44,331 nt of DNA, taken from assembly GCA_050248595.1 (NCBI GenBank), contig JBFWSB010000002.1, positions 1 to 44,331 of the forward strand, in the 5' to 3' direction. The position numbers and the translations under genes are program-made. The notes under the pieces are model-generated. The model saw only the letters and a program-made list of their open reading frames with translations, did not search any database and had not been told where the DNA came from. How positions within the stretch are numbered: position 1 is the stretch's first letter; every line of letters begins with the position of its first letter. Below are positions 5,854 to 32,835 of this stretch, one piece after another. This DNA comes from Candidatus Kapaibacterium sp. GTDB taxonomy: Bacteria > Bacteroidota > Ignavibacteria > OLB7.

Positions 5854-6114
5854 ATGCAGGTAAACCCCCTACTCCCTCAACTCCGCACAAACTATTGAAG
5901 GACTTCCTTCAGTCTCATTCACACAACGCTCTCTCCTCCCGACCATATTCCTATAGTATAACTCCAGTTTACATCGCTACTCCTGATTCGACTCTGTCAC
6001 ATTATTGATTGACGGCATCGAACCTGTCTGCTACGCTCTATGCTTTTTCTCTGCTGCTGAGCCGTGGCTTGTCGCTTCGTATTCACTTTCACCAAATCTG
6101 AACTGGAAAATTCT

Positions 6115-9100
6115 ATGCTGAACGGAGTTATTGCTTTTTCGCTGCGGCATCGGGTGCTGGTGCTCTTCTGCACGGGAGCACTTGTTGTCGGGGGAGTTAT
6201 TGCCTTCTCCCGTCTACCGATTGACGCAGTTCCCGACATCACAAACAATCAAGTGCAGATACTGACGAACGCTCCGGCTCTCTCGGCTCTGGAGATTGAA
6301 CGCTTCGTCACTTTCCCAATAGAACTCTCTGTGAAGTCCCTCCCCGACATGGTAGAACTTCGCTCCCTCTCTCGTCCCGGTCTGTCGGTGATTACCGTCG
6401 TCTTCGAGGATAGGGTAAATACCTACTTCGCGCGACAACTGATTCTGGAGAAGTTACGGGAGATTGAGGAGACCCTTCCCGATGGTGTGGAGCGTCCAGA
6501 GCTTGGTCCGGTCTCCACCGGACTTGGAGAGATATTCCGCTACGTTGTTCGGGATACAACCAACCGCTATTCTCCAATGGAGTTGCGAACGATTCAGGAC
6601 TGGATTGTTCGCCGTGAACTGTTAGGAGCGGATGCCTTAGCGGAGGTAAACTCGTTAGGGGGTGAACTGAAGCAGTACCAGATTTTGGTCGACCCAGATC
6701 GACTTGCGAACTACGATATCTCACTGCGGGATGTCTTTCGCGCAGCAACTGAGGCAAGCGATAATGCCGGTGGAGCCTACATCGAAACCGGGCCGGAACA
6801 ACTATCTGTTAGATCAGTTGGGCTAACTACTACGGTTGATGATATTCGGGAGAGTGTCATCGGAGCCTACTCCGACGGAACGCCGCTTCGGATAGGAGAT
6901 GTAGCGGAGGTGACAACTGGTCCGGCTATTCGCTTCGGCTCTGCTTCGCAAGATGGGAGAGGAGAAGTTGTGGTCGGTATCGTCATGCAACTGAAGGGGG
7001 CAAACGCTCGGGTTACGGACAACGGAGTGAAGGAGCGGATCGAGGAGAACAAGCCGCTGTTGCCGGAGGGGGTAGTGATTGAGCCGTTCTACGACCGAGA
7101 GGCGTTGGTAGATAGAACAATCGAGACTGTCCTGATGAACCTAATTGAAGGGGCGTTGCTCGTTGTCGGCATTCTTCTCCTCTTTCTGGTAAGCCTTCGA
7201 GCCGGATTGATTGTAGCATCAGTAATTCCCTTAGCCATGTGCTTTGCAGGAATCATGATGCTCCTGAGTGGACAGAGTGGGAACCTGATGTCTCTCGGCG
7301 CGATTGACTTCGGCTTAGTTGTGGATGGATCGTTGATTATCGTGGAGAATATCCTCCGCCTGATGGATCGCAGATTCCGCGATGGGACATCATCTTCTAT
7401 CACCTCGGGAGAGATGCGCCAGTTAGTCTACGAGGGGAGCGTTGAAGTGCGGACTGCGGCGCAGTTCGGCGAGATTATCATCATCGTAGTCTACCTTCCA
7501 ATTATTACCCTGCAAGGGATCGAAGGGAAGCTCTTCAGACCAATGGCACTCACCGTCACCTTCGCCTTGATTGGTGCTCTCCTCCTCTCCATAACCTACG
7601 TTCCGGCGATTTCATCTCTGCTGCTGCGAGGGGAGAAACGTGTGCGCCACTCCCCAATTATCGAGTGGATCCGCCGCGGCTACACCCCCCTGCTCAACTG
7701 GGGACTGCGGAATCGCCCCGCAATTATCGGCACTGCTTTCGGACTTGTTCTGTTAGCTCTTTTCGGCTTTACCCGTCTTGGCGGAGAGTTTATTCCGAGA
7801 CTCGATGAAGGTGATATTGCGATGCACCTGATTCGGCTTCCATCAATCTCACTGAGTGAATCGCAGAAGATTGCAACTGCTGTGGAGAAAGAACTGATGA
7901 CCTTCCCAGAGGTGAAGACCGTTGTCTCCCACACCGGACGTGCCGAGGTCTCCACCGACCCAATGGGGTTCGAGTTGGCCGACGTTTTCATCATGCTGCG
8001 CGAGGAAGATGAGTGGACAACAGGGAGAACGAAGGAGGAACTTGTTGAGGCGATGGCGGAGCGGATGAAGAAGTTTCCCGGCGTTGGCACACAGTTCTTG
8101 CAGCCGATAGAGATGCGAATGAACGAACTGATTGCCGGAGCACGAGGTGATGTGGTGGTGAAGATTTTCGGAGAAGCCTACGAAACGTTGTCACCGGCAG
8201 CCGAAAAGATTAGTGGAATTATCCGAACGCTGGATGGAGCCGCCGACGTGGCAGTAGAGCAGACACGTGGCCTCTCCCAACTTGTTATCCGTCCCGACCG
8301 AAATGCTCTCGCCCGCTACGGCCTGAGCGTTGCCGAAGTAAACCACGCGGTTGGGATGGCCGTTGCCGGGGAGAAGGCTGGAACGGTCTACGAAGGGGAG
8401 CAGCAGTTTGATTTAGTTGTCCGCTATCGCGCAAGTGCTCGCACAAACGTTGATGCAATTCGGGAGATACTGGTGAAGACACCTGTCGGAGCACTCGTCC
8501 CTCTGAAAGAGCTTGCTTCTGTCAAGATTGAGGAGGGGCCTGCGCAGATTTCACGAGAGGGAAGCTCTCGGTTTACTACAGTGCAAGCAAACGTGCGGGG
8601 ACGTGACGTAGAGAGCTTCGTGGAAGAATTGCGGGAGCATGTGGAGCGAGAGGTTGAACTTCCCCCCGGCTACCGAATCGACTACGGTGGAGAGTTTAGG
8701 AACCTTGAAGATGCCTCGCAACGCCTTCTGTTTGTAGTGCCGATCGCACTCTTCTTGATCTTCGCTCTCCTCTACCAAACGTTCGGCTCGTTCCGACTCG
8801 GCCTGCTAATTTTCCTCTGCATTCCAATGTCTGTTGTTGGTGGAGTAGCTGCACTCTTAATTCGAGGGATGCCCTTCTCAATCTCTGCCGGTGTCGGCTT
8901 CATTGCCCTCTTCGGCATTGCTGTGTTGAACGGCATTGTGATGGTTGCGGCAATTCGCAAATATCAACTCTCTGGTCTTTCGCGAAGAGAGGCTGTGACC
9001 TTAGGAGCCGAAGAGCGACTCCGCCCGGTAATCACTACCGCAGCACTTGCTGGCTTCGGCTTCCTCCCGATGATGCTCGCAACAAGTGCAGGAGCCGAGG

Positions 9101-10476
9101 TACAACGCCCCTTAGCAACCGTCGTGATCGGAGGGCTTATCTCAGCCACACTCCTTACGCTGATCTTACTGCCGATTATCTACGAACGTTTTGGGGATGA
9201 TCCTTCCACAGCTTCAACAGATGAGAAGGGAAAAGAGAAACGATCTTCACGACTCTGGAAGGGAGGAGTAGGCCTCTTCCTTCTCCTCTGCTTTAGCATA
9301 GGGACGCCTTCACTTTCTGGGCAAACAGTACTGACCCGACAGTTACTGATTGAACGGGGACTGGCCACTTCACCAGAACGGGATCGAGTCCATGCTTCGG
9401 TAGAACGGGTTGATGCAGAAGGGAGAAGTGCAAACATTCTTCCCCCAACTTCTCTCTTCTACGAAGTAGAGGAATATCCGACAGGCTCACTCCCCGGTGA
9501 ACTGACAACATCAATCGGCATCAGTCAACCGTTCCCATTCCCTTCTACCTGGGGGGCAAACAGTCGGGCTAAGCGTGCGGCTTTCTTGGCTGCTGAGGGA
9601 GAACGTGCAGTTGTTGACTGCAACATTGTGGGGAAGGCAAACCAGTTGTGGCTTGACCTAATTCACGCTTCATGGCACTTGAACCTGACCGACACGATGA
9701 CCGCAAACGCTCGGCGCATTGCAGAGATTATCCGCTTCCGCCGCACCGTTGGCGAGATTGACGCTCTGGAGGCAACGCAAGGTGAAATCATTCTCGCCGA
9801 AGCACAGCGCGACTCCATTGCCGCCCACAGTCGCTTTGTTGGAGCAATGCGCCGCGCACGTTCCTTTATGGCCGCTGCTGAGGGTGAAGAATTTGTTCTC
9901 CGGGTTGACTCTATCTCTCTGTTCAAACGGCAGAACCGGGAAGAACTGATAGGTCAACTGCGAGAGCATCATCCTCACCTTCACTTACTTGAACGTCAGA
10001 TTGAAGCACTTGAAGCACGCAACGATGTTCTCCGGGCAAGCCGTCTCCCATCCTTTGAACTCGAGTTGCGAAGCCAGCGAGTGGGGGGAGAAGGGGGATA
10101 TATCGGAGCCGGCATTCGGCTGAACGCTCCGATTACCCGATGGTTTGGCGATCCGAAAGGAGATGCCTTACAAGCTGAGGAAAGAGAGCTTCGGGCGGAG
10201 ATGCGCCAGAGAGAACGTGATTTGATTCGCCAACTGGATGACCTGCTGATTGAACGAGAGGAGAAGGAGGAACTGATTAAGCACTATCAAACAACTCTTC
10301 TGCCGGCAGCACGAAGTGCTTGGCAAATTGGCCTACGCCTCTACCAAGAGGGAGAGATTGGATATCTCGGAGTCGTCTCCGCCCACAACACTCTTGTCAC
10401 TTACGAGCGTGAGTGGTTGGAGAGAGAACTTGATGTAGAGCGGATTGACCTACAGATCGAAGGCTTGGTGAAGTAA
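6115..10476 (+). CDS. czcA: CusA/CzcA-family heavy-metal RND efflux pump fused in frame to a CzcC/TolC-like outer-membrane factor
   Basis: The track ORF starts at GTG 6064. I prefer ATG 6115 (MLNGVIAFSLRHRVLV, a typical CzcA N-terminus).
- aa 1 to ~1027 are a full RND permease, ending LLPIIYERF.
- Next comes the linker DDPSTASTDEKGKEKRSSRLWK and a signal-peptide-like segment GGVGLFLLLCFSIGTPSLSGQ.
- The remaining ~385 aa have OMF character: LTRQLLIERGLATSPERDRV..., coiled-coil-rich, ending LQIEGLVK.
- There is no stop codon and no in-frame ATG/GTG/TTG at the junction (9181-9330). Confidence 0.9.
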   Translation: MLNGVIAFSLRHRVLVLFCTGALVVGGVIAFSRLPIDAVPDITNNQVQILTNAPALSALEIERFVTFPIELSVKSLPDMVELRSLSRPGLSVITVVFEDRVNTYFARQLILEKLREIEETLPDGVERPELGPVSTGLGEIFRYVVRDTTNRYSPMELRTIQDWIVRRELLGADALAEVNSLGGELKQYQILVDPDRLANYDISLRDVFRAATEASDNAGGAYIETGPEQLSVRSVGLTTTVDDIRESVIGAYSDGTPLRIGDVAEVTTGPAIRFGSASQDGRGEVVVGIVMQLKGANARVTDNGVKERIEENKPLLPEGVVIEPFYDREALVDRTIETVLMNLIEGALLVVGILLLFLVSLRAGLIVASVIPLAMCFAGIMMLLSGQSGNLMSLGAIDFGLVVDGSLIIVENILRLMDRRFRDGTSSSITSGEMRQLVYEGSVEVRTAAQFGEIIIIVVYLPIITLQGIEGKLFRPMALTVTFALIGALLLSITYVPAISSLLLRGEKRVRHSPIIEWIRRGYTPLLNWGLRNRPAIIGTAFGLVLLALFGFTRLGGEFIPRLDEGDIAMHLIRLPSISLSESQKIATAVEKELMTFPEVKTVVSHTGRAEVSTDPMGFELADVFIMLREEDEWTTGRTKEELVEAMAERMKKFPGVGTQFLQPIEMRMNELIAGARGDVVVKIFGEAYETLSPAAEKISGIIRTLDGAADVAVEQTRGLSQLVIRPDRNALARYGLSVAEVNHAVGMAVAGEKAGTVYEGEQQFDLVVRYRASARTNVDAIREILVKTPVGALVPLKELASVKIEEGPAQISREGSSRFTTVQANVRGRDVESFVEELREHVEREVELPPGYRIDYGGEFRNLEDASQRLLFVVPIALFLIFALLYQTFGSFRLGLLIFLCIPMSVVGGVAALLIRGMPFSISAGVGFIALFGIAVLNGIVMVAAIRKYQLSGLSRREAVTLGAEERLRPVITTAALAGFGFLPMMLATSAGAEVQRPLATVVIGGLISATLLTLILLPIIYERFGDDPSTASTDEKGKEKRSSRLWKGGVGLFLLLCFSIGTPSLSGQTVLTRQLLIERGLATSPERDRVHASVERVDAEGRSANILPPTSLFYEVEEYPTGSLPGELTTSIGISQPFPFPSTWGANSRAKRAAFLAAEGERAVVDCNIVGKANQLWLDLIHASWHLNLTDTMTANARRIAEIIRFRRTVGEIDALEATQGEIILAEAQRDSIAAHSRFVGAMRRARSFMAAAEGEEFVLRVDSISLFKRQNREELIGQLREHHPHLHLLERQIEALEARNDVLRASRLPSFELELRSQRVGGEGGYIGAGIRLNAPITRWFGDPKGDALQAEERELRAEMRQRERDLIRQLDDLLIEREEKEELIKHYQTTLLPAARSAWQIGLRLYQEGEIGYLGVVSAHNTLVTYEREWLERELDVERIDLQIEGLVK

Positions 10477-12110: not shown

Positions 12111-15100
12111 ATGAAGAAGAGTCTACTTCTTGCGTTAGCATCTGTGATGGCAGTTGCAGGGTTGTGGCTTCTACAGCCAACCGACGTAGAGGCGTGCGGG
12201 GGAACTTCGAACCCACCACGCTGTAATCGAACAATCTGGCTCGGGAAGTCAGTTCCACACACAGTCGCTATCCGTCCAGATGGAAGCGCGACGATTACTA
12301 TGGTGCTCCTCCCCTACATTTCGTGGGACAGGAATTGTCCAAACCCGAACGCAGCCTCTCTTTCAATTTCTCTTCGATGCCTTCCCGTAGGGGGTGGGCA
12401 AGCTGCCGCACTTGGGCCAATTACTGTTCAGGTAGGGACACCATCACAGCCGGGACGCCAACGCTTGGCTAATGGAACGAATACGTTTACCCTTCAAGCC
12501 CCCGCCGGTACGTTCAATCCAAGTATCCGATATCGCTGCCTGATTACTGGCACGTACAACGTCGGTTTCCCCTCTACTCCGAATGCCCCCCTCCCCTCTC
12601 CAATAATTACTGGCGTCGGCGATGCCACAGTCTGCATGGTTCCAGAATCTCCACTAAGCAAGGGGAACGATATTCCCGAACTGAGCGTGAGGCAGATTAC
12701 ACCGGACAACAGTGAATTCCTTCGATGCCGTCGCGGCGACCAAGGGTTGATACACGTACTGGTGGAGAACAATCATCCAACGCAGAGTGTGACGCTGGAC
12801 CTTACGAGCGTGGGACGCCAAACTGCCGGACTTCCACTCGGCTTCTCGAACCTGCAAGCTGCATACGACAGTAGCGTCAGCGCAATTTCCAACCCAACAC
12901 CTGGAACCGACGTCTTCCCAGTTGCCTTTGCCGACACAATGGCTCCGAGCACAGTCTTGCCAGATGGAGACCCTTCTGCGGTCGACCCACAGGAACTGAA
13001 CAGAACGATTACGCTCGGCCCGTGCGAGTCGCGCATTATCACGATAGCCATTCGGAGCCACGGCATGTGTGCCGACGGTTCGTGCAACGAACGAGATATG
13101 ATCTTTGCCGGAACGTGGCAGAACGGCGATTCCGCAATTGGGTGTGCAAGTACTATGCTGCTTGTTGAATCTGTAAAATCGAAAACCCCACTCTGCGAAG
13201 TTCTGGACGAACTAAAAGTCTCTGACTCGGTACAAGCCCGGTTCAGTTCGGCACAGTACGTTGGCTTTCAAGGGCAGATTGAACACGCCTCAACCCACTT
13301 CGCCGGGAACGTAACTCCGCGAGAGCAGGTGCGGGCTACCGACTTAGCCGGAAGTGCCATCCCGGTAAACTTCCCACTCCCTACAAACGCAGCCGATTAC
13401 ATTCGCACCCCGGAGGTGTTAGTAAACACTGGCTACGTGCTACAAGGACGAGCACTCTGGCTCGACTTGGTTCCATTCCAGAATAATGTGACCATCTTCA
13501 ACCTCAACCAAGCAACGAAGGCTGTGGAGATACCCTATATCGTCGGCTCGCCGTCGCAGGCAGGATTTAATATCTCCTACAATGCTGGGAACGATAGCAT
13601 TACAGTTCTGGATGGGCAAGGGAAACAGGTATTCCGCGGAACGCTCACGAACCTAAAGGCAAACCCCCCTCGTGGGTTGCGTGTGGACGTGAACACGTGC
13701 CGCCGCTTTACTAAGCGAGAGAATTATGGCGGAGCACCCTGGCTTGTCAGCCTTCCGAAAAGTCTGAGCAAACTGCTAAGCCAGACATCGGTAAAGAATA
13801 TGCGCGAGCCAATACAGATTTTGGAGGGATTGCGAGAGGAGGATATTGCGTGGGACTTCAACGTGCGAGGGAGTGGGGTGAACGTAGAGAGGAGTAAAGA
13901 CAACTTGGCTGTCTTTGTCTTCGAGCCACAAGAGATTCAAGCACCGGCAAACAGAACAGCGGTGATCTGGACGGAGTTTACGTCGAAGGAAGCAATCAAC
14001 ACTCCTCTCCTATTTCCTATTGCCGTCAGAGTAAAACCGCTCCCTGAACCACTTACCGAGATAACGCTGGAACAGGTTGACTTCATTGCTCCGTTCAACA
14101 GACCGAACTCTCACCAAGGGATATTCTCAGCTACATACGATCCGGTTCCCCGCTTGCAGTTCCTGAACGTTGTTGCTCGGCGTCCGGGAGTTCCACGTTC
14201 GGAGAGTTGGATTGTGCAGAATATGCCGCTGATGCCTTTCAGCAGATCGGAGATGGTAACCTATTGGTTCGACCTTGCCGACCTCGGCTTACCTGATGGA
14301 GTTGATGTGGAGTTGCTCGACATTTCCGTTACTGTAGGAGATGATCTCCTTACAGCTATACCAGCATCCCCCCTCTACATACCGATCGACGTTGGGGATT
14401 TTGTTTACGATGTCTACGATGGCGCACCGGAGCTTACTCCCGATCCGTTCCGAACGACACGACTTCCTGAAATCAAGTGGCCGAAGCTCACGACAGTCGA
14501 TACAGTCTACCGAGGCTGCAACGTTCCGAACATCGACTTGGATTCTTCACGGTTCAACCCGACTTCACGCCCCGGCTACGCTGGCGACAAGAATGCTTGC
14601 GGTCCGGCAGCAGCATCGAATAGTCTGGTTTGGTTGCAACGAACACATCCAAAAATTGACTCTTCACTCGGTCACCGAGATATGACCGAAGAGCTGAGTA
14701 AGCTGATGGGACGGCAGAATGAGCTTGGCGTGAATACGCTGCAACTTGTGCGAGGCAAACTTGCGTTGATCGACAAGTACAAACTTCCAATTCGTGTGAA
14801 GTTCCAGAGCAAGTGGTTCAGAAAGGATACGAACGTTGCCTCACCCGATACTACATACCGCCACGAAGGCCGGAACGACAATGGATCAGATAATGCGTGG
14901 CCAACGTGGGATTATTTCTGGGGAGAGATGAACCACGGTGAAGATGTGGAGATTCTCTTCGGCTGGTACGACAGCACAGGAACGCGGCGTGGAGGGCACT
15001 GGGTTGTTGCCTCTGGAGCGATTAACCTGAACGGTCAAGTCCGCCGACTTTGGGTGAAGGATGATAAGAGACAGCGTGACTCCGGAGGGACACGCCAGCA

Positions 15101-16760
15101 ACTGCTAACGTGGGATACGACGGCGCAGGGCATTCCGGTCTTGCGAGGCTGGGCAAACACAACGAGAGAACTCCGCATTGAGAGTGTTGTCTCCGAGAGC
15201 TACGATTCAACTATCACATTCCCGAACGCGCCAACCGAAGGTATCCGGTTCTCGCAGTTCAACTTTGTGGAGCCGTTCAACGTACCTCGCTCCCCACTTG
15301 GGAAGATGACCTGGACAACGGAGCCGGGGAACAGGACGAGGTTCCTCAATGTATACGCCCGAAAGACATTGGACGATCCTCCCGTCTGGCTTGTGCGCAA
15401 CATGGTGCTCCCTCCATTCTCTCTCTCTGAAGAGATCGACTACTGGATTGACTTCACACAACTCGGCTTTGCAAGGGGAGAACGGGTTGAAGGATTTTGG
15501 ATGTTGCCAGAAGTCAACGACGAAGTTCTGGTTGCGTTCACACCTGGATCACTTTCCGATAAATGGGAAGAGCATACCGTTTCACCATTTGATTATGCTG
15601 TCGGCTCCGGCTACACGCCGAACGCATCGACAGTTCCAGGATTTGGCAATCCTCCTTCTGGAGGGTTCGGCAGACCAGCCCGCGTTGATTCGACGTATCG
15701 GGGATGTACGATCCCGAACATCGACCTCGATTCTTCCAGAAACCGACCAAGCTCTTCCACCGGCTACGCTGGCGACTGGAATGCTTGCGCTCCTGCTGGC
15801 TGTGCGAATAGTTTGGAGTGGTTGATTGCGAACAATCCGAACTTGAATCTAAACAGAACACATCGTGAGAAACTGGAGGAGCTGAGTGCTCTGATGAAAC
15901 GGACGGCTGGGAATGGTGCGGGGGATCAAGGTGTGATTGAAGCAAAACTTGCCTTCATCGACCGACACAAGCTCCCGATTCACGTAAAGTTCCAGTGCCG
16001 TTGGCTTGGAACAGACAACATTAACTCTCCCGATACAACGGGAAGCAATGGCGACCCAAATCGTGGTGGATATGGCCACAAGGGGGAGAACAGGAAGAGT
16101 AGTGCAAACGACTGGCCAACGTGGAGCTTCTTGGAGAACGAGATGAAGAATAATGAGGATGTGGAACTCGGGATTATCTGGTACACGCGGTCTGGAAGAC
16201 CAACCGGCAAAGCCCACATCGTCACGGCAAGTGGAGTGAGTACTGCGAACGGCAGACGGAGGATTTGGTTCAAAGATGACCAGGATCAGAGGAGGAGTGG
16301 AGGGATGTCGCAGACGCAGGCCACGTGGGATACGACAAGTTTCGGTGCGGGAATTATCCCCGAGCTGTCGCTTGGCGACACGATTGCCTATATCTCGTCG
16401 ATATTCTCCGAGAGCTACGACCCGAGCGTTCGATTCGACACGATAGCCGGAACAAGTTCGGTTCCAGTAATCGGCAACGCTCCCGACTTCAAGCTCACGA
16501 TTCTACGCAACCCAAGCAGTTCAAGTGAATCGGTTGAGTTCCTCTTCACGCTACCGCGACCGGCAGATGCCGAGGTGGTGATCTACGATCTGTTAGGGCA
16601 TGAGATATACTCTCTCCCGGCAGAATCATTTGAAGCTGGAATACATCGCTTAGAGTGGAATGGCAGAGAAGAGGGAGGAGCAAAGACCGCGGCGGGAACA
16701 TACTTCGTAGTTCTCCGCGTCGGCGACGCCGAACAGACTGCGCGGATGGTAAGAGAGTAG
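12111..16760 (+). CDS. Giant T9SS cargo protein with two tandem papain-like (C39-like) Cys/His modules
   Basis: 1549 aa. An AGGAG lies ~9 nt upstream of the ATG, and the signal peptide is MKKSLLLALASVMAVAGLWLL. aa 651-1043 and 1044 to ~1440 are tandem copies of a ~393-aa module. Each copy contains:
- YRGC.[VI]PNIDLDSSR...GYAGD.NAC.PA..ANSL.WL (Cys830, Cys1226)
- a downstream G.H[WI]V.ASG (His963, His1369)
- KDD..QR.SGG
- a closing SESYD
The last ~90 aa (VEFLFTLPRPADAEVVIYDLLGHEIY...GTYFVVLRVG) form a T9SS sorting domain. Confidence 0.85.
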   Translation: MKKSLLLALASVMAVAGLWLLQPTDVEACGGTSNPPRCNRTIWLGKSVPHTVAIRPDGSATITMVLLPYISWDRNCPNPNAASLSISLRCLPVGGGQAAALGPITVQVGTPSQPGRQRLANGTNTFTLQAPAGTFNPSIRYRCLITGTYNVGFPSTPNAPLPSPIITGVGDATVCMVPESPLSKGNDIPELSVRQITPDNSEFLRCRRGDQGLIHVLVENNHPTQSVTLDLTSVGRQTAGLPLGFSNLQAAYDSSVSAISNPTPGTDVFPVAFADTMAPSTVLPDGDPSAVDPQELNRTITLGPCESRIITIAIRSHGMCADGSCNERDMIFAGTWQNGDSAIGCASTMLLVESVKSKTPLCEVLDELKVSDSVQARFSSAQYVGFQGQIEHASTHFAGNVTPREQVRATDLAGSAIPVNFPLPTNAADYIRTPEVLVNTGYVLQGRALWLDLVPFQNNVTIFNLNQATKAVEIPYIVGSPSQAGFNISYNAGNDSITVLDGQGKQVFRGTLTNLKANPPRGLRVDVNTCRRFTKRENYGGAPWLVSLPKSLSKLLSQTSVKNMREPIQILEGLREEDIAWDFNVRGSGVNVERSKDNLAVFVFEPQEIQAPANRTAVIWTEFTSKEAINTPLLFPIAVRVKPLPEPLTEITLEQVDFIAPFNRPNSHQGIFSATYDPVPRLQFLNVVARRPGVPRSESWIVQNMPLMPFSRSEMVTYWFDLADLGLPDGVDVELLDISVTVGDDLLTAIPASPLYIPIDVGDFVYDVYDGAPELTPDPFRTTRLPEIKWPKLTTVDTVYRGCNVPNIDLDSSRFNPTSRPGYAGDKNACGPAAASNSLVWLQRTHPKIDSSLGHRDMTEELSKLMGRQNELGVNTLQLVRGKLALIDKYKLPIRVKFQSKWFRKDTNVASPDTTYRHEGRNDNGSDNAWPTWDYFWGEMNHGEDVEILFGWYDSTGTRRGGHWVVASGAINLNGQVRRLWVKDDKRQRDSGGTRQQLLTWDTTAQGIPVLRGWANTTRELRIESVVSESYDSTITFPNAPTEGIRFSQFNFVEPFNVPRSPLGKMTWTTEPGNRTRFLNVYARKTLDDPPVWLVRNMVLPPFSLSEEIDYWIDFTQLGFARGERVEGFWMLPEVNDEVLVAFTPGSLSDKWEEHTVSPFDYAVGSGYTPNASTVPGFGNPPSGGFGRPARVDSTYRGCTIPNIDLDSSRNRPSSSTGYAGDWNACAPAGCANSLEWLIANNPNLNLNRTHREKLEELSALMKRTAGNGAGDQGVIEAKLAFIDRHKLPIHVKFQCRWLGTDNINSPDTTGSNGDPNRGGYGHKGENRKSSANDWPTWSFLENEMKNNEDVELGIIWYTRSGRPTGKAHIVTASGVSTANGRRRIWFKDDQDQRRSGGMSQTQATWDTTSFGAGIIPELSLGDTIAYISSIFSESYDPSVRFDTIAGTSSVPVIGNAPDFKLTILRNPSSSSESVEFLFTLPRPADAEVVIYDLLGHEIYSLPAESFEAGIHRLEWNGREEGGAKTAAGTYFVVLRVGDAEQTARMVRE

Positions 16761-16962: not shown

Positions 16963-19785
16963 ATGAACCGTCGCCACGTTTTACCTTTGTTGTTCCTTTC
17001 AACACTTCTTCTGTCGGCTGCTCTATTCTTCATTCTGAAAGAAGGATCGGAGCCATCGCTCTCTGGAGGAACAGACCCTGAAATCTCGTCGGAGCGCATC
17101 CGGTGGGAGTGGGAGCGACTACGCGATCCGGCAACAGGCAAGATTCCAGCAGATATTCGCCGTCGCGAGATTGCATTCTCCGCCACTCTTCCACGACGGG
17201 AACAATTCTCTCCGCTGCTCAAGTCGGCTGGCAATCCAGTCTCTCTTTGGGTACAACGGGGACCTTGGAATGTGGGGGGACGAACCCGCGGAGTATCGAT
17301 TGACGTTGCGAACGACCAGATGATCTTAGCTGGTGGCGTAAGTGGTGGCATGTGGAAGTCGGACGACGGAGGGGAGAGCTGGCGAATGGTGACCCGCCCA
17401 GATCAACTGCCGAGCGTTACTACGGTAGCGCAAGATCGACGCCCCGGAAAAACGGAGACCTGGTACTTCGGCTCCGGTGAGCTTTGGGGGAACAGTGCCT
17501 CCGGTGGAGGCTCGTTCTGGCACGGAGATGGAATTTTTAAGTCGACAGACAACGGAGAGAGTTGGTTTGCGTTGGAGTCGACCAGCTCGGGAACGCCTCA
17601 GACGTTCAACGTCACCGATAACATCTGGCGCATCGCAACCGATCCATCAAACCTCGAACAGGATGAAGTCTACGCCGCTATCTATGGAAGAATCATCCGC
17701 TCTGTTGACGGAGGAGAGACGTGGCAAGAGGTTCTGAAGCCATCATCTCTTCAATCCAGTAGCTACTTCACCGATGTTGCCGTCACCAGCACTGGAGTTG
17801 TTTACGCAACCTTAAGTAGAGATGGAGGGAAGCGGGGAATCTATCGCTCAGAAAATGGGACGAGCTTCACAAACATTACTCCAAGCGATATACCAAGCTC
17901 CTACAACCGAATTGTGATTGGGATTGCCCCGTCAAACGAAAACGTTGTCTACTTCCTCGGTGAAACTCCCGGCTCTGGCTTTCTCGGACGGAACTTTCGT
18001 GGCGATTCTTCTTGGCAATCTCTCTGGAAATACACATACATCTCCGGAAACGGATCAGGTGATGGAGGGATGTGGGAAAACCGCTCGGCAAATCTCCCCT
18101 CTTTCACAACGGAAACCGCTGGGAATGGTGATCTCTTCACGCAGGGTGGATACGACCTTCACGTCCGGGTCAAGCCTGACGATGAGAACGTTGTGTTTAT
18201 CGGGGGAACAAATCTCTACCGCTCAACTGATGGATTTGCGTCGACAGCGAACACCTCTTGGATTGGTGGCTTCCGCGATTGGAAGCGAGATAGTGCAGTG
18301 ATCGAGGAGTACTCCTATCCCGACCACCACGCAGACCAGCACGACGTTATCTTCTCTCCCACCGACCCGAACGTGATGTACAGCGCAAGCGACGGTGGCG
18401 TCCACAAAACACTCGACTGCACAGCCGACTCGATCTTCTGGATTTCTCTGAACAGTGGATACCTAACCACGCAGTTTTATGCGATTGCAATCGATCAAGG
18501 GACGAAGGGGAGTCAGACAATCATGGGAGGGTTGCAGGATAACGGCACGTGGCGGACGCACGTGTACGACAACCGTGCCCCCTGGATTCGAACCGGAAGC
18601 AGCGATGGCGCATACTGTGCAATTTCCGACGGAGGGAAATATCTCTACGTCTCGAAGCAGCAAGGACGCATCTACCGCGTCGAAGTGAATGAACTTGAGG
18701 AGGAGACCGGTTCTACCCGCATTGACCCGGCAGGAGCGACAGGCTATCGCTTTATCAACCCATTCATTCTCGACCCGAACGATTCCCGCGTTATGTATCT
18801 GCCAGTGGGGAAATCAATCCATCTGAACAAAGACGTAACCGCAATTCCACTCGATAGTAAGGAGCCGACATCGCTCGGTTGGAGTTCGTTGAGTGGAAGC
18901 CAACTGGATACTGGAGAGATTACTTGCATTAGTGCTTCGAAGGAGGCTCCAGCCTCCCGCCTTTGGTATGGCACAAACGATGGGCGCGTATTCAGAATGG
19001 ATGATGCGCTCGGAGAGAATCCCGTAGCTGTAGAGGTAACTGGAACGAACTTTCCGACCAACGGTTTTGTCTCCTGCATTAGCGTCGACTACATAAATGG
19101 CGACCGCGCCATTGTGGCCTTCTCCAACTACAGCATTGTCAGTCTCTACGAAACAACAGATGGTGGGGAGACCTGGACTCCGGTTAGTGGGAACCTGGAG
19201 GAAAACCCTGATGGAAGTGGAGCAGGTCCGTCGGTTCGGTGGATTACGATTCTGCACCGGGGTTTAGGAACGCTCTACTTGGCCGGAACCAGCACAGGAC
19301 TATACACCACTACTGCCCTCAACGGCGAGGAGACAATCTGGGAGAAAGAAGGAGCCGAAGAGATCGGCAACGTTGTGGTGGATATGATTGTTGCCCGCCC
19401 ATCAGATGGCTTCGTGGCTATCGGAACGCACGGGAACGGAGTGTTTAGCTCAATAGTCCCCCCCCTTGGAGTTGAGGAGGGAACCGGGAGCTTGGGGACA
19501 AGGCGCGCCTTGTCCCTGCGGCAAAACGTTCCAAACCCGATGGATGAATCGACCCGCATCTCATTCACGGTTCCAGATGGCAAGCCGTTACCGGTGAACA
19601 TAACGCTCTTCAACGCAGAAGGGCGAAAGGTGGCAACGTTGGCGGAGGGGGTGTATCGACCAGGTGAACAGACAATCATCGTCAATCGTGAGGTTTCTCC
19701 GGGAAATCGATTGACCCCGGGATTATATTTCTATCGCCTGCAATCGGGGGAGGTGAGTCTATCGCGTCCATTGCACGTTCGGTGA
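16963..19785 (+). CDS. BNR/Asp-box repeat (sortilin/Vps10- or GH74-like) beta-propeller protein with a T9SS sorting domain
   Basis: 940 aa. Signal peptide: MNRRHVLPLLFLSTLLLSAALFF. Several S-x-D-x-G-x-[ST]-W Asp-boxes are present: SDDGGESW, STDNGESW, SVDGGETW, TTDGGETW. The C-terminus (LRQNVPNPMDESTRISFTV...ITLFNAEGRKV...GLYFYRLQSG) is a T9SS type A sorting domain. Confidence 0.85.
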   Translation: MNRRHVLPLLFLSTLLLSAALFFILKEGSEPSLSGGTDPEISSERIRWEWERLRDPATGKIPADIRRREIAFSATLPRREQFSPLLKSAGNPVSLWVQRGPWNVGGRTRGVSIDVANDQMILAGGVSGGMWKSDDGGESWRMVTRPDQLPSVTTVAQDRRPGKTETWYFGSGELWGNSASGGGSFWHGDGIFKSTDNGESWFALESTSSGTPQTFNVTDNIWRIATDPSNLEQDEVYAAIYGRIIRSVDGGETWQEVLKPSSLQSSSYFTDVAVTSTGVVYATLSRDGGKRGIYRSENGTSFTNITPSDIPSSYNRIVIGIAPSNENVVYFLGETPGSGFLGRNFRGDSSWQSLWKYTYISGNGSGDGGMWENRSANLPSFTTETAGNGDLFTQGGYDLHVRVKPDDENVVFIGGTNLYRSTDGFASTANTSWIGGFRDWKRDSAVIEEYSYPDHHADQHDVIFSPTDPNVMYSASDGGVHKTLDCTADSIFWISLNSGYLTTQFYAIAIDQGTKGSQTIMGGLQDNGTWRTHVYDNRAPWIRTGSSDGAYCAISDGGKYLYVSKQQGRIYRVEVNELEEETGSTRIDPAGATGYRFINPFILDPNDSRVMYLPVGKSIHLNKDVTAIPLDSKEPTSLGWSSLSGSQLDTGEITCISASKEAPASRLWYGTNDGRVFRMDDALGENPVAVEVTGTNFPTNGFVSCISVDYINGDRAIVAFSNYSIVSLYETTDGGETWTPVSGNLEENPDGSGAGPSVRWITILHRGLGTLYLAGTSTGLYTTTALNGEETIWEKEGAEEIGNVVVDMIVARPSDGFVAIGTHGNGVFSSIVPPLGVEEGTGSLGTRRALSLRQNVPNPMDESTRISFTVPDGKPLPVNITLFNAEGRKVATLAEGVYRPGEQTIIVNREVSPGNRLTPGLYFYRLQSGEVSLSRPLHVR

Positions 19786-27756: not shown

Positions 27757-29226
27757 ATGCAGATACTCTCTACATCATTCGGATTGCTTGCGCTCATTGC
27801 TTTGATAAGCTCATCTTGCACAACAACGGCTCAAACAATTGACGTTGAGCTTGTCCCGGCCTTCCCCAACCTGACGTTTCCGCAGCCCACAGACATTCAA
27901 AATGCGGGGGATGGATCGAACAGACTCTTTGTCTGCGAGAAGACAGGGTTTCTGCACGTCTTTCCAAACAATCCCGATGTCTCGGAGACAACACTTTTTC
28001 TCGACCTAAGCACTCGCGTCACTACCCAGTCGGAAATGGGATTGTTAGGGTTAGCCTTCCACCCGAACTACGAAGAGAACGGCTTCTTCTATGTCTACTA
28101 TAACGTCCAGCGAGGGAACAAACTCTACACGATTATCTCGCGCTTCAGTGTCGACTCTGAGGATCCGAACAAGGCCGACATCAACTCCGAACTTGTTCTG
28201 ATGGAAATTGAACAACCCTTCGGGAACCATGATGGCGGACAGATTGCATTTGGCCCAGATGATGGCTACCTATATATCGCGTTGGGTGACGGCGGTTCTG
28301 GTGGTGACCCACTGAACTCTGGACAAGACCTCCGCTCACCTCTCGGAAAGATTCTCCGCATCGACGTCGACAACACTGATGGAGATAAGAACTACAGCAT
28401 CCCCGCAACGAACCCGTTTGCCACGAACAGCGAGTACGTTCAGGAAATCTATGCTTGGGGATTGCGCAACCCGTGGCGCTTCAGCTTCGACCCACCTACC
28501 GGAAGACTCTGGGCTGGTGATGTGGGGCAGGATAAGTGGGAAGAGATTGACATTATCGAGAAGGGGGGGAACTACGGCTGGCGAGTAACCGAGGGTTGGC
28601 ACTGCTACAATCCGAACAACAACTGCGATTCCATCGGGTTGATCGGCCCAGTTTGGGAGTACAGCCACAGCGTCGGCCAGTCGATTACTGGCGGATATGT
28701 CTACCGTGGTTCAAACGTTCCAGCACTTGAGGGGATGTATATCTACGGTGACTTCTCAAGCTCTCGCATCTGGGCGTTGGACTATCAGAGTCCAGAAGAT
28801 GTCTCCAACATTCTTCTAACAACGGCTCCTCTCGGTGTTTCTACCTTTGGAATTGATGAGAGCAACGAACTCTACGTGACAGGGTTTGGTTCAAATCAAA
28901 CCAATCGGAAGATTTACAAGTTTGTTGACCCATCGGGTAATGTTGAAGGTGGGGAGTTAAACGCAGAGGCAACGCTCCACCCTGCCATCCCAAACCCTGC
29001 ACGCTCTCGGGTGACGATTCCCTACGATCTCGATGGTAGTATGCAAGTCTCAATCACGATCTTCAACAGTATCGGCGAAGAGATTGCCCAACTAATCAAC
29101 CAGAAGAAAGAAGTGGGAGAACATCAGGTTGAGTTCGACACAACGGAGATTCCGGGTGGAATCTACTACGTACAACTCACAACGGAGAAAGGACAGGTAA
29201 CGCGGAAGTTGACGGTAGAGCATTGA
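27757..29226 (+). CDS. PQQ-dependent (soluble glucose/sorbosone dehydrogenase, HHIP-like) beta-propeller protein with T9SS CTD - paralog 1
   Basis: 489 aa with a signal peptide. SGDH motifs: GLLGLAFHPNYEENGFFYVYY, HDGGQIAFGPDDGYLYIALGDGG, AWGLRNPWRFSFDPPTGRLWAGDVGQDKWEEIDIIEKGGNYGWRVTEG. CTD: LHPAIPNPARSRVTIPYDL...ITIFNSIGEEI...GIYYVQLTTEKG. Confidence 0.85.
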   Translation: MQILSTSFGLLALIALISSSCTTTAQTIDVELVPAFPNLTFPQPTDIQNAGDGSNRLFVCEKTGFLHVFPNNPDVSETTLFLDLSTRVTTQSEMGLLGLAFHPNYEENGFFYVYYNVQRGNKLYTIISRFSVDSEDPNKADINSELVLMEIEQPFGNHDGGQIAFGPDDGYLYIALGDGGSGGDPLNSGQDLRSPLGKILRIDVDNTDGDKNYSIPATNPFATNSEYVQEIYAWGLRNPWRFSFDPPTGRLWAGDVGQDKWEEIDIIEKGGNYGWRVTEGWHCYNPNNNCDSIGLIGPVWEYSHSVGQSITGGYVYRGSNVPALEGMYIYGDFSSSRIWALDYQSPEDVSNILLTTAPLGVSTFGIDESNELYVTGFGSNQTNRKIYKFVDPSGNVEGGELNAEATLHPAIPNPARSRVTIPYDLDGSMQVSITIFNSIGEEIAQLINQKKEVGEHQVEFDTTEIPGGIYYVQLTTEKGQVTRKLTVEH

Positions 29227-29240
29227 GTAAGCTTTGAGTC

Positions 29241-29277
29241 GTGAGCTACGAGCATTACAATGTTGCTCGTAGCTCAC
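29241..29277 (+). terminator. Strong intercistronic hairpin between paralogs 1 and 2
   Basis: gtgagctacgagca / tgctcgtagctcac form a 14-bp perfect stem with a 9-nt loop, starting 15 nt after the stop. No T-run follows, so it could be a terminator, an attenuator or an RNA-processing site. Confidence 0.5.
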
Positions 29278-29305
29278 AGCCAACTAACATAGGTGCGAGA
29301 CAACG

Positions 29306-30526
29306 ATGTACTGTCACCCTGCCAAAAATGTTCGGAAAGTTGTTCAGATGGTATTTAGCGGTCTGTTTTCTACACTGCTGATACTCACCCCCTTCGTTGA
29401 ATTGCAGAGCCAATCTGTTGATGTTAACAGTACCTCGACTTTCCCCAACCTCCCACTCAACAACGTTCGCATTACGAAAATGCAGTTCGCTCCAGATGGA
29501 TCGAACCGTTGGTTTATCTGCGAACAGAATGGTGTTCTCTGGACTGCAAAGAATAGCGTGACAACCAATCGTGCAGACACCCTCTTCGACTTTCGGCAGA
29601 AGATTGTCTCTACCGACGAGGCGGGATTGCTCGGCCTTGCGTTCGATCCAGATTTCCTGACCAACCGCTTCATCTACCTGAACTACACGATACAGCGGAA
29701 TGACTCCCTCTGGACGTTGATTACCCGACTCACACTCACCGCAACCGATCCGCCAGAAGTTCTTCCCTCATCGGAACAAGTTCTGATGGAAATCTATCAA
29801 CCCTACCCAACACACAACGGAGGAGAGATTGCCTTCGGGCCGCAGGATCACTATCTCTACATCAGCACTGGGGATGGTGGAGGATTTGGTGACCCCTTCA
29901 ACCGAGCACAAGACCTTCGCTCACCTCTCGGAAAGATTCTCTGTATCGACGTGAAGAACCCTGCGCCGGGAAAAGCCTACAGCATCCCGGTAACAAATCC
30001 GTTTGCTGGAAACAGCCACTACAGAGAAGAGATTTACGCTTGGGGTTTGCGCAACCCGTGGCGTTTCAGTTTCGACAAAGAGACGGGAAGACTCTGGGCT
30101 GGTGATGTCGGGCAGAACGCATCTGAGGAGATCAACATCATCGAGCGTGGGGGGAACTACGGCTGGCGCGTGATGGAAGGCTTCCACTGTTTTGATCGAG
30201 ACGACCCGCTCAACCTGACAAAGGTGTGTGACTCCACATCGTTGATTGCACCTCTATACGAATATCTTCACGTAGATTTAAGCAGTGGTTACTCGATCAC
30301 CGGCGGCTATCTCTACCGTGGCAAACAAATTCCTGAGCTTGAAGGATGGTATATCTACGGCGACCTCTCTACCGGAAAGATCTGGGGTTTAGGTGATGAT
30401 GGAAACGGTACGATCACAAATATCGAGTTGATCGACACGGATCACCTGATTACAACATTTGGCGTCGACGACAAGGGAGAACTCTACTACGGAACACTTG
30501 GTCAGGGAATTTACAAACTACAGTGA
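29306..30526 (+). CDS. PQQ-dependent sugar dehydrogenase-like beta-propeller - paralog 2 (no T9SS CTD)
   Basis: 406 aa. It carries the same motif set: GLLGLAFDPDF, HNGGEIAFGPQDHYLYISTGDGG, AWGLRNPWRFSFDKETGRLWAGDVGQNASEEINIIERGGNYGWRVMEG. It ends at the propeller (GQGIYKLQ*) with no sorting domain. The signal-like segment is LFSTLLILTPFVELQSQ, and ATG 29348 is an alternative start. Confidence 0.85.
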   Translation: MYCHPAKNVRKVVQMVFSGLFSTLLILTPFVELQSQSVDVNSTSTFPNLPLNNVRITKMQFAPDGSNRWFICEQNGVLWTAKNSVTTNRADTLFDFRQKIVSTDEAGLLGLAFDPDFLTNRFIYLNYTIQRNDSLWTLITRLTLTATDPPEVLPSSEQVLMEIYQPYPTHNGGEIAFGPQDHYLYISTGDGGGFGDPFNRAQDLRSPLGKILCIDVKNPAPGKAYSIPVTNPFAGNSHYREEIYAWGLRNPWRFSFDKETGRLWAGDVGQNASEEINIIERGGNYGWRVMEGFHCFDRDDPLNLTKVCDSTSLIAPLYEYLHVDLSSGYSITGGYLYRGKQIPELEGWYIYGDLSTGKIWGLGDDGNGTITNIELIDTDHLITTFGVDDKGELYYGTLGQGIYKLQ

Positions 30527-30539
30527 TGGAAGTACTCAA

Positions 30540-31055
30540 ATGAAAGAACTGGCAGATAGCATAGCTCAACTTCAATCGACTATCCCAACACTTCAGGGAA
30601 TGTTGGGATCGGTCAGGAACGAAGAATGGAACTGGCGGCCCAAACCAGATGCATGGTCAATCCTCGACGTTGTGAACCACTTGGCTGATGAAGAGCGGGT
30701 AGACTTTCGAGTACGGCTCGACTTAACTCTGCACCACCCCGAGAAAGATTGGCCGGGAATCGATCCAGAAAGTGCAGTAAAGAACAATCTCTACCAGAAT
30801 CGTTCTCTTCAGGAAGCACTTGACGACTTCGTTGCTGAGCGAGAACGTTCACTACAATGGTTGGCAACGCTCGACAAACCAGACTGGAATTCCACACACA
30901 CGCACCCACTTTTCGGTCCAATGCAGGCCGGAACCTTAATGGCTTCTTGGGTTGGGCACGACCTTCTCCACCTCCGGCAAATAGCTCGGTTGCGGTGGGA
31001 CTATCTTGCTCAGCAAGCGGCTCCCTACTCGTTGCGCTACGCGGGAGATTGGTAA
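30540..31055 (+). CDS. DinB-family (DinB_2-like four-helix bundle) protein
   Basis: The track ORF 30459.. overlaps paralog 2. I prefer ATG 30540 (MKELADSIAQLQ). Motifs: WNWRPKPDAWSILDVVNHLADEE and WVGHDLLHLRQIARL, which supply the His residues characteristic of DinB-fold metal sites. Confidence 0.8.
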   Translation: MKELADSIAQLQSTIPTLQGMLGSVRNEEWNWRPKPDAWSILDVVNHLADEERVDFRVRLDLTLHHPEKDWPGIDPESAVKNNLYQNRSLQEALDDFVAERERSLQWLATLDKPDWNSTHTHPLFGPMQAGTLMASWVGHDLLHLRQIARLRWDYLAQQAAPYSLRYAGDW

Positions 31056-31197
31056 GTCTTCGGGGACGATTCTCAAGTCGGGGAGGCTTCACCTGTATCG
31101 GTCTCCCATCTCTGCGGTCATTTTTACCATCCTAATTTGTGCAGAGCTTATTATCTTCTGCTCAACCAGAATATCATTACGCAACAGTGCTGCAATC

Positions 31198-32661: not shown

Positions 32662-32835
32662 TCTCTATTCTGCATGTGCAAAACATAGAAATCTCGGTAG
32701 AACAACTACTCCCTCATCTGGTCAGCTATCGATTCAAGATTCTGCTTGTTAGAGTTCAGCTTTACAAGCGGTCGGTCCACCACATACAACATTCATGTAT
32801 TGAATATCCCTATCACCAGAAAACAGGATTTAATC

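Follow-up and report, generated by a model that had tools for sequence, protein, structure and literature searches.

Here we describe a 1549-residue protein encoded in a 44,331-nucleotide stretch of DNA from Candidatus Kapaibacterium sp. (contig JBFWSB010000002.1, analysed at its full length and called the window below). The protein is probably exported by a type IX secretion system (T9SS) and would carry two active papain-fold modules, putative Cys-His-Asp peptidases, on a beta-sandwich stalk. The evidence consists of a tandem duplication, a sorting domain at the C-terminus, the fold as predicted, and three candidate catalytic residues, with their sequential order, their places in the secondary structure and their conservation. 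An earlier note on this DNA had proposed a surface or secreted double cysteine enzyme; the T9SS sorting domain, the predicted papain-fold modules and the conserved triad agree with this, while the proposed membership in Peptidase_C39_2 and the supposed unusualness of two modules have to be given up. The open reading frame (ORF) lies exactly where that note had placed it, on the + strand, and its parts, including immunoglobulin-like (Ig-like) domains scored by predicted local distance difference test (pLDDT), are as follows.

12111..16760, + strand: complete ORF of 1549 amino acids (aa) plus stop codon, backed by five full-length orthologues with 47-77% identity
12111..12194, + strand: predicted Sec signal peptide, aa 1-28 (MKKSLLLALASVMAVAGLWLL...VEA, then C; helix 2-20 in the model)
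12195..14060, + strand: N-terminal region, aa 29-650, an all-beta Ig-like/beta-sandwich array with ~13 conserved Cys
14061..14411, + strand: module 1 Ig-like beta-sandwich, aa 651-767 (model strands 2-117, pLDDT 82-94)
14496..15206, + strand: papain-fold domain of module 1, aa 796-1032 (a lobe of three helices, then an antiparallel sheet; Foldseek matches)
15240..16430, + strand: module 2, aa 1044-1440 (Ig-like part ~aa 1045-1163, papain-fold part ~aa 1192-1437; 41% identity to module 1)
16509..16757, + strand: T9SS type A C-terminal sorting domain, aa 1467-1549 (TIGR04183 and PF13860)

The two modules are tandem duplicates, as had been claimed from the letters of the sequence. BLASTP aligns aa 651-1043 with aa 1044-1440 at 41% identity over 402 columns (263 bits), and the expectation value (E) of 2e-89 puts the duplication far beyond chance; a hidden Markov model built from 12 module copies of six orthologues sets the module boundaries at 651-1043 and 1045-1448. 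All of the shared blocks listed earlier lie within the BLASTP alignment, for example YRGC..PNIDLDSSR, GYAGD.NAC.PA, KLPI.VKFQ and EDVE, and KDD..QR.SGG, WDTT and SESYD are likewise present in both copies. Furthermore, a neighbour-joining tree of the copies from the six orthologues groups all first copies in one clade and all second copies in another, which indicates that the duplication predates the divergence of these orthologues and that both copies, together with their triad, have been kept. Indeed, both copies in all six retain the Cys, the His and the Asp discussed below, though the copies are only ~42% identical to each other.

The fold of the module was predicted with AlphaFold2 from alignment A1, which holds the 12 module copies from six orthologues; the structure model covers module 1 only, and the parts of module 2 were placed by residue mapping. 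The model (pLDDT 81.3, predicted template modelling score (pTM) 0.85) consists, in module numbering, of a sandwich at residues 2-117, a poorly modelled linker at 121-180 (pLDDT 53-79), helices at 180-195, 205-215 and 226-239, and an antiparallel sheet at 244-381. A helical lobe followed by an antiparallel sheet lobe is the two-lobe arrangement of clan CA peptidases. Searched against the PDB with Foldseek, module 1 gave seven matches at E<=1e-3, all of them clan CA cysteine peptidases: C0362/T-Mac (9mdm, and 9mdk, E64-inhibited), IdeS (8a47), staphopains C and A (8oig and 1cv8), IdeC and Mac-1, with Foldseek probabilities of 0.97-1.00 for T-Mac C0362, IdeS, staphopain and Mac-1. The Ig-like sandwich gave weak matches (E 0.05-0.17) to the PapD-like chaperones FimC, Caf1M and FaeE and to ASF1. 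The predicted fold and the clan CA matches thus agree with the papain-fold modules with conserved Cys and His that had been proposed for this protein.

We propose Cys830/His963/Asp985 as the candidate triad of module 1 and Cys1226/His1369/Asp1390 as that of module 2. In module numbering the first three are Cys180, His313 and Asp335, and their conservation was followed in A1 and in a second alignment, A2, of 45 diverse sequences that are 25-43% identical to module 1. The codons concerned are these.

14598..14600, + strand: Cys830, the residue with which helix 180-195 begins and the proposed nucleophile of module 1; invariant in the 45 relatives
14997..14999, + strand: His963, proposed general base of module 1, on strand 309-323; invariant in A2
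15063..15065, + strand: Asp985, proposed third triad residue of module 1, at the end of the neighbouring strand 327-335; invariant in A2
15786..15788, + strand: Cys1226, proposed nucleophile of module 2, from alignment A1 and residue mapping
16215..16217, + strand: His1369 of module 2, from alignment A1 and residue mapping
16278..16280, + strand: Asp1390 of module 2, from alignment A1 and residue mapping

Both candidate Cys residues named in the earlier note are present, and so are the His residues that it had put 133-143 residues downstream: His963 lies in GGHWVVASG and His1369 in KAHIVTASG, at Cys-His distances of 133 and 143. The conserved third catalytic residue (Asp/Asn) for which it had suggested a check is Asp985 in module 1 and Asp1390 in module 2, with His-to-Asp spacings of 22 and 21 residues, respectively. 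The residues follow the clan CA order, namely a Cys at the N-terminal end of the first helix (within a block, 171-180, whose pLDDT is only 63), a His on a strand and an Asn or Asp on the adjacent strand; the Cys-His geometry itself is a predicted one, taken from fold equivalence. The triad columns are invariant in both alignments, and A2 has only ten invariant columns, Cys180, His313 and Asp335 among them. In a wider sample of 222 domains from 149 representatives, 182 of 200 retain the Cys, 190 of 209 the His and 208 of 209 the Asp, and the complete Cys-His-Asp set occurs in 262 of ~315 domain hits (244 relatives). About 35 of the remaining hits are split or partial, with a gap at one triad position, and ~20 are substituted (for example GQD, GKD and SHD); in four- and five-module proteins the substituted copies are mostly the last of the array.

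A further motif, YRGCxxPNxDLDS, stands 18-30 residues ahead of the proposed nucleophile in both modules (aa 800-812, 14508-14546, and aa 1196-1208, 15696-15734). It is strongly conserved in the family (L160 in 193 of 201 domains, N157 in 178 of 199, C153 in 143 of 184) and sits in the lowest-confidence part of the model (pLDDT 53-63). Apart from the proposed nucleophile Cys830, the Cys803 of this motif is the sole cysteine of module 1; the motif may serve in a regulatory disulfide, in a metal site or in the oxyanion hole.

Export is indicated by the C-terminus of the protein, and a Sec signal peptide is predicted at the other end. At the extreme C-terminus, TIGR04183 (Por_Secre_tail) scores 27.0 bits over aa 1467-1547 of 1549, above its curated cut-off of 23, which upholds the earlier description of the protein as T9SS cargo; PF13860 (FlgD_ig) scores 38.5 bits against a cut-off of 27 in the same tail, and a CHU_C match there is sub-threshold. 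At the N-terminus, the model has a helix at 2-20 followed by a disordered stretch at 19-28, and cleavage between VEA and Cys29 is probable; the hydrophobic N-terminus and the cleavage site were recognised by eye. A lipoprotein anchored through Cys29 was considered and rejected by eye, the V-E-A ahead of the Cys being unlike a lipobox. Besides this gene, the window has at least three ORFs whose Por_Secre_tail match exceeds the cut-off and two whose match falls short of it, which suggests that the organism uses the T9SS pathway widely. Outside the secretion tail, no Pfam or NCBIfam threshold is reached anywhere in the 1549-residue protein, and a search of PDB sequences with the whole protein returned no match except for the tail.

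The N-terminal region (aa 29-650) contains the Cys motifs CGGTSNPPRC, RCLP, RYRC and MCADGSC that had been picked out earlier. The same note had found nothing recognisable in the first 650 residues; this stands for sequence, in that no Pfam, NCBIfam or PDB sequence match was found, and fails for structure, in that a beta-sandwich array is confidently predicted. AlphaFold2 models the region almost entirely as strands (pLDDT 88.9, pTM 0.83, from 21 sequences), and Foldseek returns many significant, generic multi-sandwich matches with template modelling (TM) scores of only 0.1-0.2, among them the SbsB surface-layer (S-layer) protein, macroglobulin (MG) domains of bacterial alpha-2-macroglobulin, arrestins, complement C5 and protein 4.2; no enzyme fold is among them. 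A profile of the first 650 residues finds a rare sequence family of ~20 proteins, some of them stand-alone at ~680 residues and some fused to TSP_3 repeats or a T9SS tail. Four proteins share only the first ~645 residues and then continue with thrombospondin type 3 repeats or a beta-helix and a T9SS tail, and for this reason the window protein appears from sequence to be a fusion of two separable units, the N-terminal region and the repeated module. We infer that the N-terminal region is a disulfide-stabilised stalk or binding array, as modelled, and not an enzyme. Two near-invariant motifs occur in it: CRRGDQ (aa 206-211, 12726-12743), which contains RGD, and RSHGMCADGSC (aa 315-325, 13053-13085).

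Of characterised proteins, the one that Foldseek matches best (E 1.6e-5, probability 1.00) is T-Mac/C0362, a fragment from the C-terminus of Treponema denticola TDE0362. In C0362 an Ig-like, PapD-like N-120 domain, required for solubility, precedes a Mac domain with the canonical papain fold; Cys412/His561/Asn585 form its triad, the Cys standing at a helix's N-terminal end, and its proteolytic activity has been shown experimentally (PMC11833123). The window module shares with it the Ig-like, PapD-like sandwich directly before the papain fold, a Cys that starts a helix, the position of the His ~130-150 residues after the Cys, and a third residue 22-24 positions after the His (21 in window module 2); furthermore, T-Mac is exported to the cell surface or medium, as is predicted for the window protein. 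The two differ in the third residue, which is Asn585 in T-Mac and Asp in the window modules, and share only 8-10% sequence identity, with no sequence-level match. T-Mac is also just one module of a spirochaete lipoprotein released by PrtP, whereas the window protein is a tandem array with a T9SS tail, and the substrates of T-Mac, complement factors, are irrelevant for an environmental member of the Ignavibacteria.

The streptococcal enzymes IdeS, Mac-1 and IdeC (MEROPS C66) match the papain fold at E 1e-4 to 7e-4. IdeS has the triad Cys94/His262/Asp284, as cited in PMC11833123, so that it has the Cys-His-Asp composition of the window modules, and its Asp lies 22 residues past the His, the spacing of His963-Asp985. 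These enzymes show no detectable sequence similarity to the module, and the TM score normalised to the target is only 0.36-0.38; IdeS, moreover, is an IgG-specific enzyme that a Gram-positive organism secretes, and no Ig-like domain stands ahead of its papain fold. Once normalised for size, the fold agrees best with the staphopains A/B/C (MEROPS C47), at a TM of 0.60 on a 173-residue target. These minimal secreted papain-fold peptidases have ~10% identity to the window module, with no sequence match, and have Asn as the third residue; they also have a propeptide and paired staphostatin inhibitors, whereas no conserved partner gene accompanies the module family in 45 loci. Among T9SS cargo, the gingipains RgpA and Kgp of Porphyromonas gingivalis are likewise large multi-domain cysteine peptidases exported by means of a C-terminal beta-sandwich signal. 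The gingipains are caspase-like enzymes of clan CD (C25) with one catalytic domain plus adhesin domains, in contrast to the window protein, which would belong to clan CA and in which the catalytic unit is repeated. Cysteine peptidases are common as T9SS cargo (PMC11205867).

Put together, a course of events can be proposed for this protein. The Sec signal peptide would take it to the periplasm, and the type A sorting domain would direct it through the T9SS across the outer membrane, after which it would be released or anchored at the surface. The mature protein would comprise a ~620-residue disulfide-stabilised beta-sandwich stalk and two catalytic modules, each with an Ig-like sandwich predicted to pack ahead of a two-lobe papain-fold domain. 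Cys830 and Cys1226, at the start of the first helix, would act as nucleophiles, activated by His963 and His1369 on a beta-strand, which in turn would be oriented by Asp985 and Asp1390, 21-22 residues further on, on the neighbouring strand. Amide bonds would then be cleaved by the classical clan CA thiol-imidazolium mechanism. The enzyme is a putative hydrolase, most likely a peptidase acting on peptide bonds, and its role is likely the extracellular degradation or processing of proteins by a heterotroph.

Several points weigh against this assignment. The Foldseek TM normalised to the query is only 0.26-0.31, which can be put down to the query holding two domains. Module residues 151-180, up to and including the nucleophile, have a pLDDT of only 53-63, and the active-site geometry is thus not confidently modelled; in addition, the model of module 1 was built from only 12 sequences. 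At the sequence level there is no significant link to Pfam, NCBIfam or the PDB even with profiles: searches of the PDB with the protein and with profiles A1 and A2 gave only matches of the FlgD/C-terminal-domain tail and a chance match to Erlin-1 (E 0.45), and IdeS, Mac-1 and T-Mac were absent at E<=10 from phmmer and profile searches of PDB sequences. All named relatives are annotated as hypothetical as far as the module is concerned. Finally, clan CA also contains transglutaminases, amidases and acyltransferases that have this fold and work with a Cys-His-Asp triad.

The sequence-level results also bear on where within clan CA the modules belong. The earlier assignment to Peptidase_C39_2 (PF13529) does not stand, the Pfam threshold not being reached and the closest folds being IdeS/T-Mac (C66-like) and staphopain (C47), not a solved C39 structure. 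PF13529 is nevertheless the sole enzyme family that appears for the module, and the module shares with it an NxCGP-type nucleophile motif followed by a GH-strand; sub-threshold matches occur in 5 of the 12 module copies (best E 0.0065), cover profile positions 12-140 of 143 and always bracket the stretch from the Cys to just past the His or the KDD motif, starting 3-4 residues before the Cys and ending just past the His (P0006) or at KDD (P0004). It is therefore conceivable that the modules are bona fide Peptidase_C39_2 members too divergent to score, which would leave the mechanism unchanged. We consider this unlikely, as all scores fall under the gathering cut-off (the best, from orthologue P0004, is a whole-protein score of 22.4 bits against 24), the window protein has no match at E<=1 and its own two modules none at E<=5, and only 1 of 45 diverse members matches, at E 0.03. 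The signal would rather reflect, at the level of sequence, a distant clan-level relationship than membership. As to the C66 enzymes, no Pfam Mac-1 match was found with the window protein, the 12 module copies or the 45 diverse relatives; Foldseek against C66/T-Mac gives E 1.6e-5 to 7e-4 and probabilities of 0.97-1.0, but TM scores of 0.28-0.38. Other matches, to Phage_base_V and Tudor_4, spanned short stretches with scores under the cut-off, and we took them for noise. The description that fits the module best is that of a new clan CA family, without a name so far and predicted to be enzymatic.

A second explanation keeps the fold and changes the chemistry. The modules could be clan CA enzymes other than general peptidases, either peptidoglycan or isopeptide amidases directed against neighbouring cells, or a transglutaminase or transpeptidase that cross-links or anchors surface proteins. 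The triad is Cys-His-Asp and not Cys-His-Asn, and Cys-His-Asp is found in transglutaminases and C39 enzymes; IdeS, however, likewise has Asp as its third residue. Among predicted viral structures, the fold is matched best by the peptidase domain of a mycobacteriophage Lysin A, which is a cell-wall hydrolase, and next to it by a papain protease of the AvrRpt2-like kind; these matches are weak (E 3e-3 and 6e-3). A tblastn search of 50,697 phage records with the catalytic domain gave no match. The sole sequence hint, Peptidase_C39_2, leads to a family of mixed, mostly untested function. Against such enzymes, the PDB fold matches at E<=1e-2 are all protein-cleaving peptidases and include no transglutaminase, NlpC/P60 amidase or LapG, and no immunity-like or conserved partner gene stands beside the family in the 45 loci. 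We accordingly give this explanation a low probability and retain the peptidase assignment.

That the modules are catalytically dead pseudo-proteases serving as binding or scaffold units of an adhesin or surface-layer component is very improbable. In favour of it, Ig-like sandwich makes up ~60% of the protein, arrays of the S-layer and macroglobulin type are similar to the N-terminal region, and some copies in other multi-module proteins lack the Cys or His (GQD, GKD, SHD), which suggests that inactive copies are tolerated. Against it, both copies in six orthologues keep the triad despite their divergence, the triad residues are among the ten columns invariant in 45 diverse sequences, and the degenerate copies are few (~20 of ~315 hits), those in four- and five-module proteins being mostly the last of the array.

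The family of putative peptidase modules extends far beyond the window protein. A word-indexed search of 5.8 billion proteins found five full-length orthologues only, at 47-77% identity. The A1 profile, run exhaustively against 1.84 billion cluster representatives (50% identity), found 984 proteins at E<=1e-3 and 202 at E<=1e-30. The family is found mostly in T9SS-bearing metagenome-assembled genomes (MAGs) of the Fibrobacteres-Chlorobi-Bacteroidetes (FCB) group, with named sources being MAGs of Bacteroidales, Mariniphaga, Saprospiraceae, KSB1, Ignavibacteriales, Chlorobi and Zixibacteria, and its commonest form is a protein of ~630 residues with one module and a T9SS tail. Within GTDB species genomes we located 45 loci, in Ignavibacteria, Kapabacteria, Prolixibacteraceae, Lewinellaceae, Chitinophagaceae, Chlorobiota, Melioribacteraceae and Zixibacteria; one of these, in Ignavibacteria MAG HK-STAS-BACT-82, is 97% identical to module 1. 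A literature search returned nothing specific on the module family or on papain-like T9SS cargo in Ignavibacteria.

The earlier note had called two intact modules on one T9SS substrate unusual, and the family itself contradicts this: 41 of ~240 relatives have two to five modules (32 with two, and 3 each with three, four and five), so that multi-module arrays make up about one representative in six. The triad is complete in every domain hit of several of these, namely in 5 of 5 in P0012, in 3 of 3 each in P0017 and P0028, and in 2 of 2 in 19 proteins. The largest array seen is that of P0012, a protein of 3926 residues in which five almost identical modules lie exactly 546 residues apart, all with intact triads; this array is a recent amplification. 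A more speculative proposal is that, once exported, an array of two to five units is cleaved by its own modules wherever the conserved junction sequence ESYD[ST]T[IV]TFP... occurs, so that several enzymes are set free. We think this improbable; if true, one secretion event would yield multiple proteases, a clan CA counterpart of gingipain polyprotein processing.

Other tags replace the T9SS tail in distant members of the family. PEP-CTERM matches occur in 3 of 45 A2 sequences (best E 4e-4), the distant members being among P0236-P0244, and P0243 has a dockerin domain, which suggests that outside the core FCB set the module is routed by other surface or secretion systems. Such tags in relatives are as would be expected, by analogy, of a secreted enzyme. 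Three of the loci (L014, L025 and L029) lie in MAGs titled 'uncultured Hyphomicrobiales', a group of Alphaproteobacteria, which are not known to have T9SS; mis-binning or horizontal transfer could be the cause.

The consequences are chiefly for annotation. Roughly 1000 sequence clusters of T9SS cargo from Ignavibacteria, Kapabacteria, Bacteroidota, Chlorobiota and Zixibacteria carry the module and are annotated as hypothetical, or only by their secretion tail, and the assignment as a probable Cys-His-Asp papain-fold enzyme would give this cargo a testable function. A new Pfam or MEROPS family would be justified, and the T9SS proteases, of which the gingipains of clan CD are the best known, would gain a clan CA class. 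The catalytic arrays further offer a simple system in which to ask why bacteria multiply a catalytic unit within one exported polypeptide. What is new is that a large family which current domain libraries do not detect can be placed in clan CA, and that in this family the whole catalytic unit tends to be amplified in tandem. A secreted cysteine protease with a T9SS tail is not surprising in itself and the fold is a classical one, so that for the protease or T9SS specialist the gene is no surprise, while being a worthwhile annotation and a clean experimental target.

The genomic neighbourhood of the gene differs between relatives. Upstream lie genes for a CusA/CzcA-type resistance-nodulation-division (RND) pump and a membrane-fusion protein, and downstream, at 16963-19785 (+), a 940-residue BNR/sortilin-like protein with a sub-threshold T9SS tail (TIGR04183, 20.8 against 23 bits). 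An operon link to the RND efflux genes or to the BNR/sortilin-like gene was rejected, as it is not conserved in the orthologues; the genes around orthologue P0005, for example, bear no relation to those around the window gene. No conserved partner gene for an inhibitor, an immunity protein or a substrate was found in the 6 kb flanks of the 45 loci, where nothing recurs past the local synteny of close relatives and the best non-self cluster occurs in 6 loci. Since the neighbourhood is not conserved, the gene looks autonomous. A promoter and terminator scan gave nothing above shuffled background.

Three other regions of the window merit mention. The ORF at 6064-10476 (+) encodes 1470 residues, with a CusA/CzcA-type RND permease at aa 18-1042 (TIGR00914, 1168 bits) and a ~430-residue C-terminal part containing two stretches of outer-membrane efflux protein (OEP/TolC-like); pump and channel may be fused in it, or an error of assembly or reading frame may have joined two genes. 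At 38885-43441 (-) there is a second large orphan protein, an ORF of 1518 residues with no Pfam or NCBIfam match at E<=1e-3. Finally, 27757-34293 (+) holds four consecutive glucose/sorbosone dehydrogenase paralogues (PF07995), three of which have Por_Secre_tail above the cut-off.

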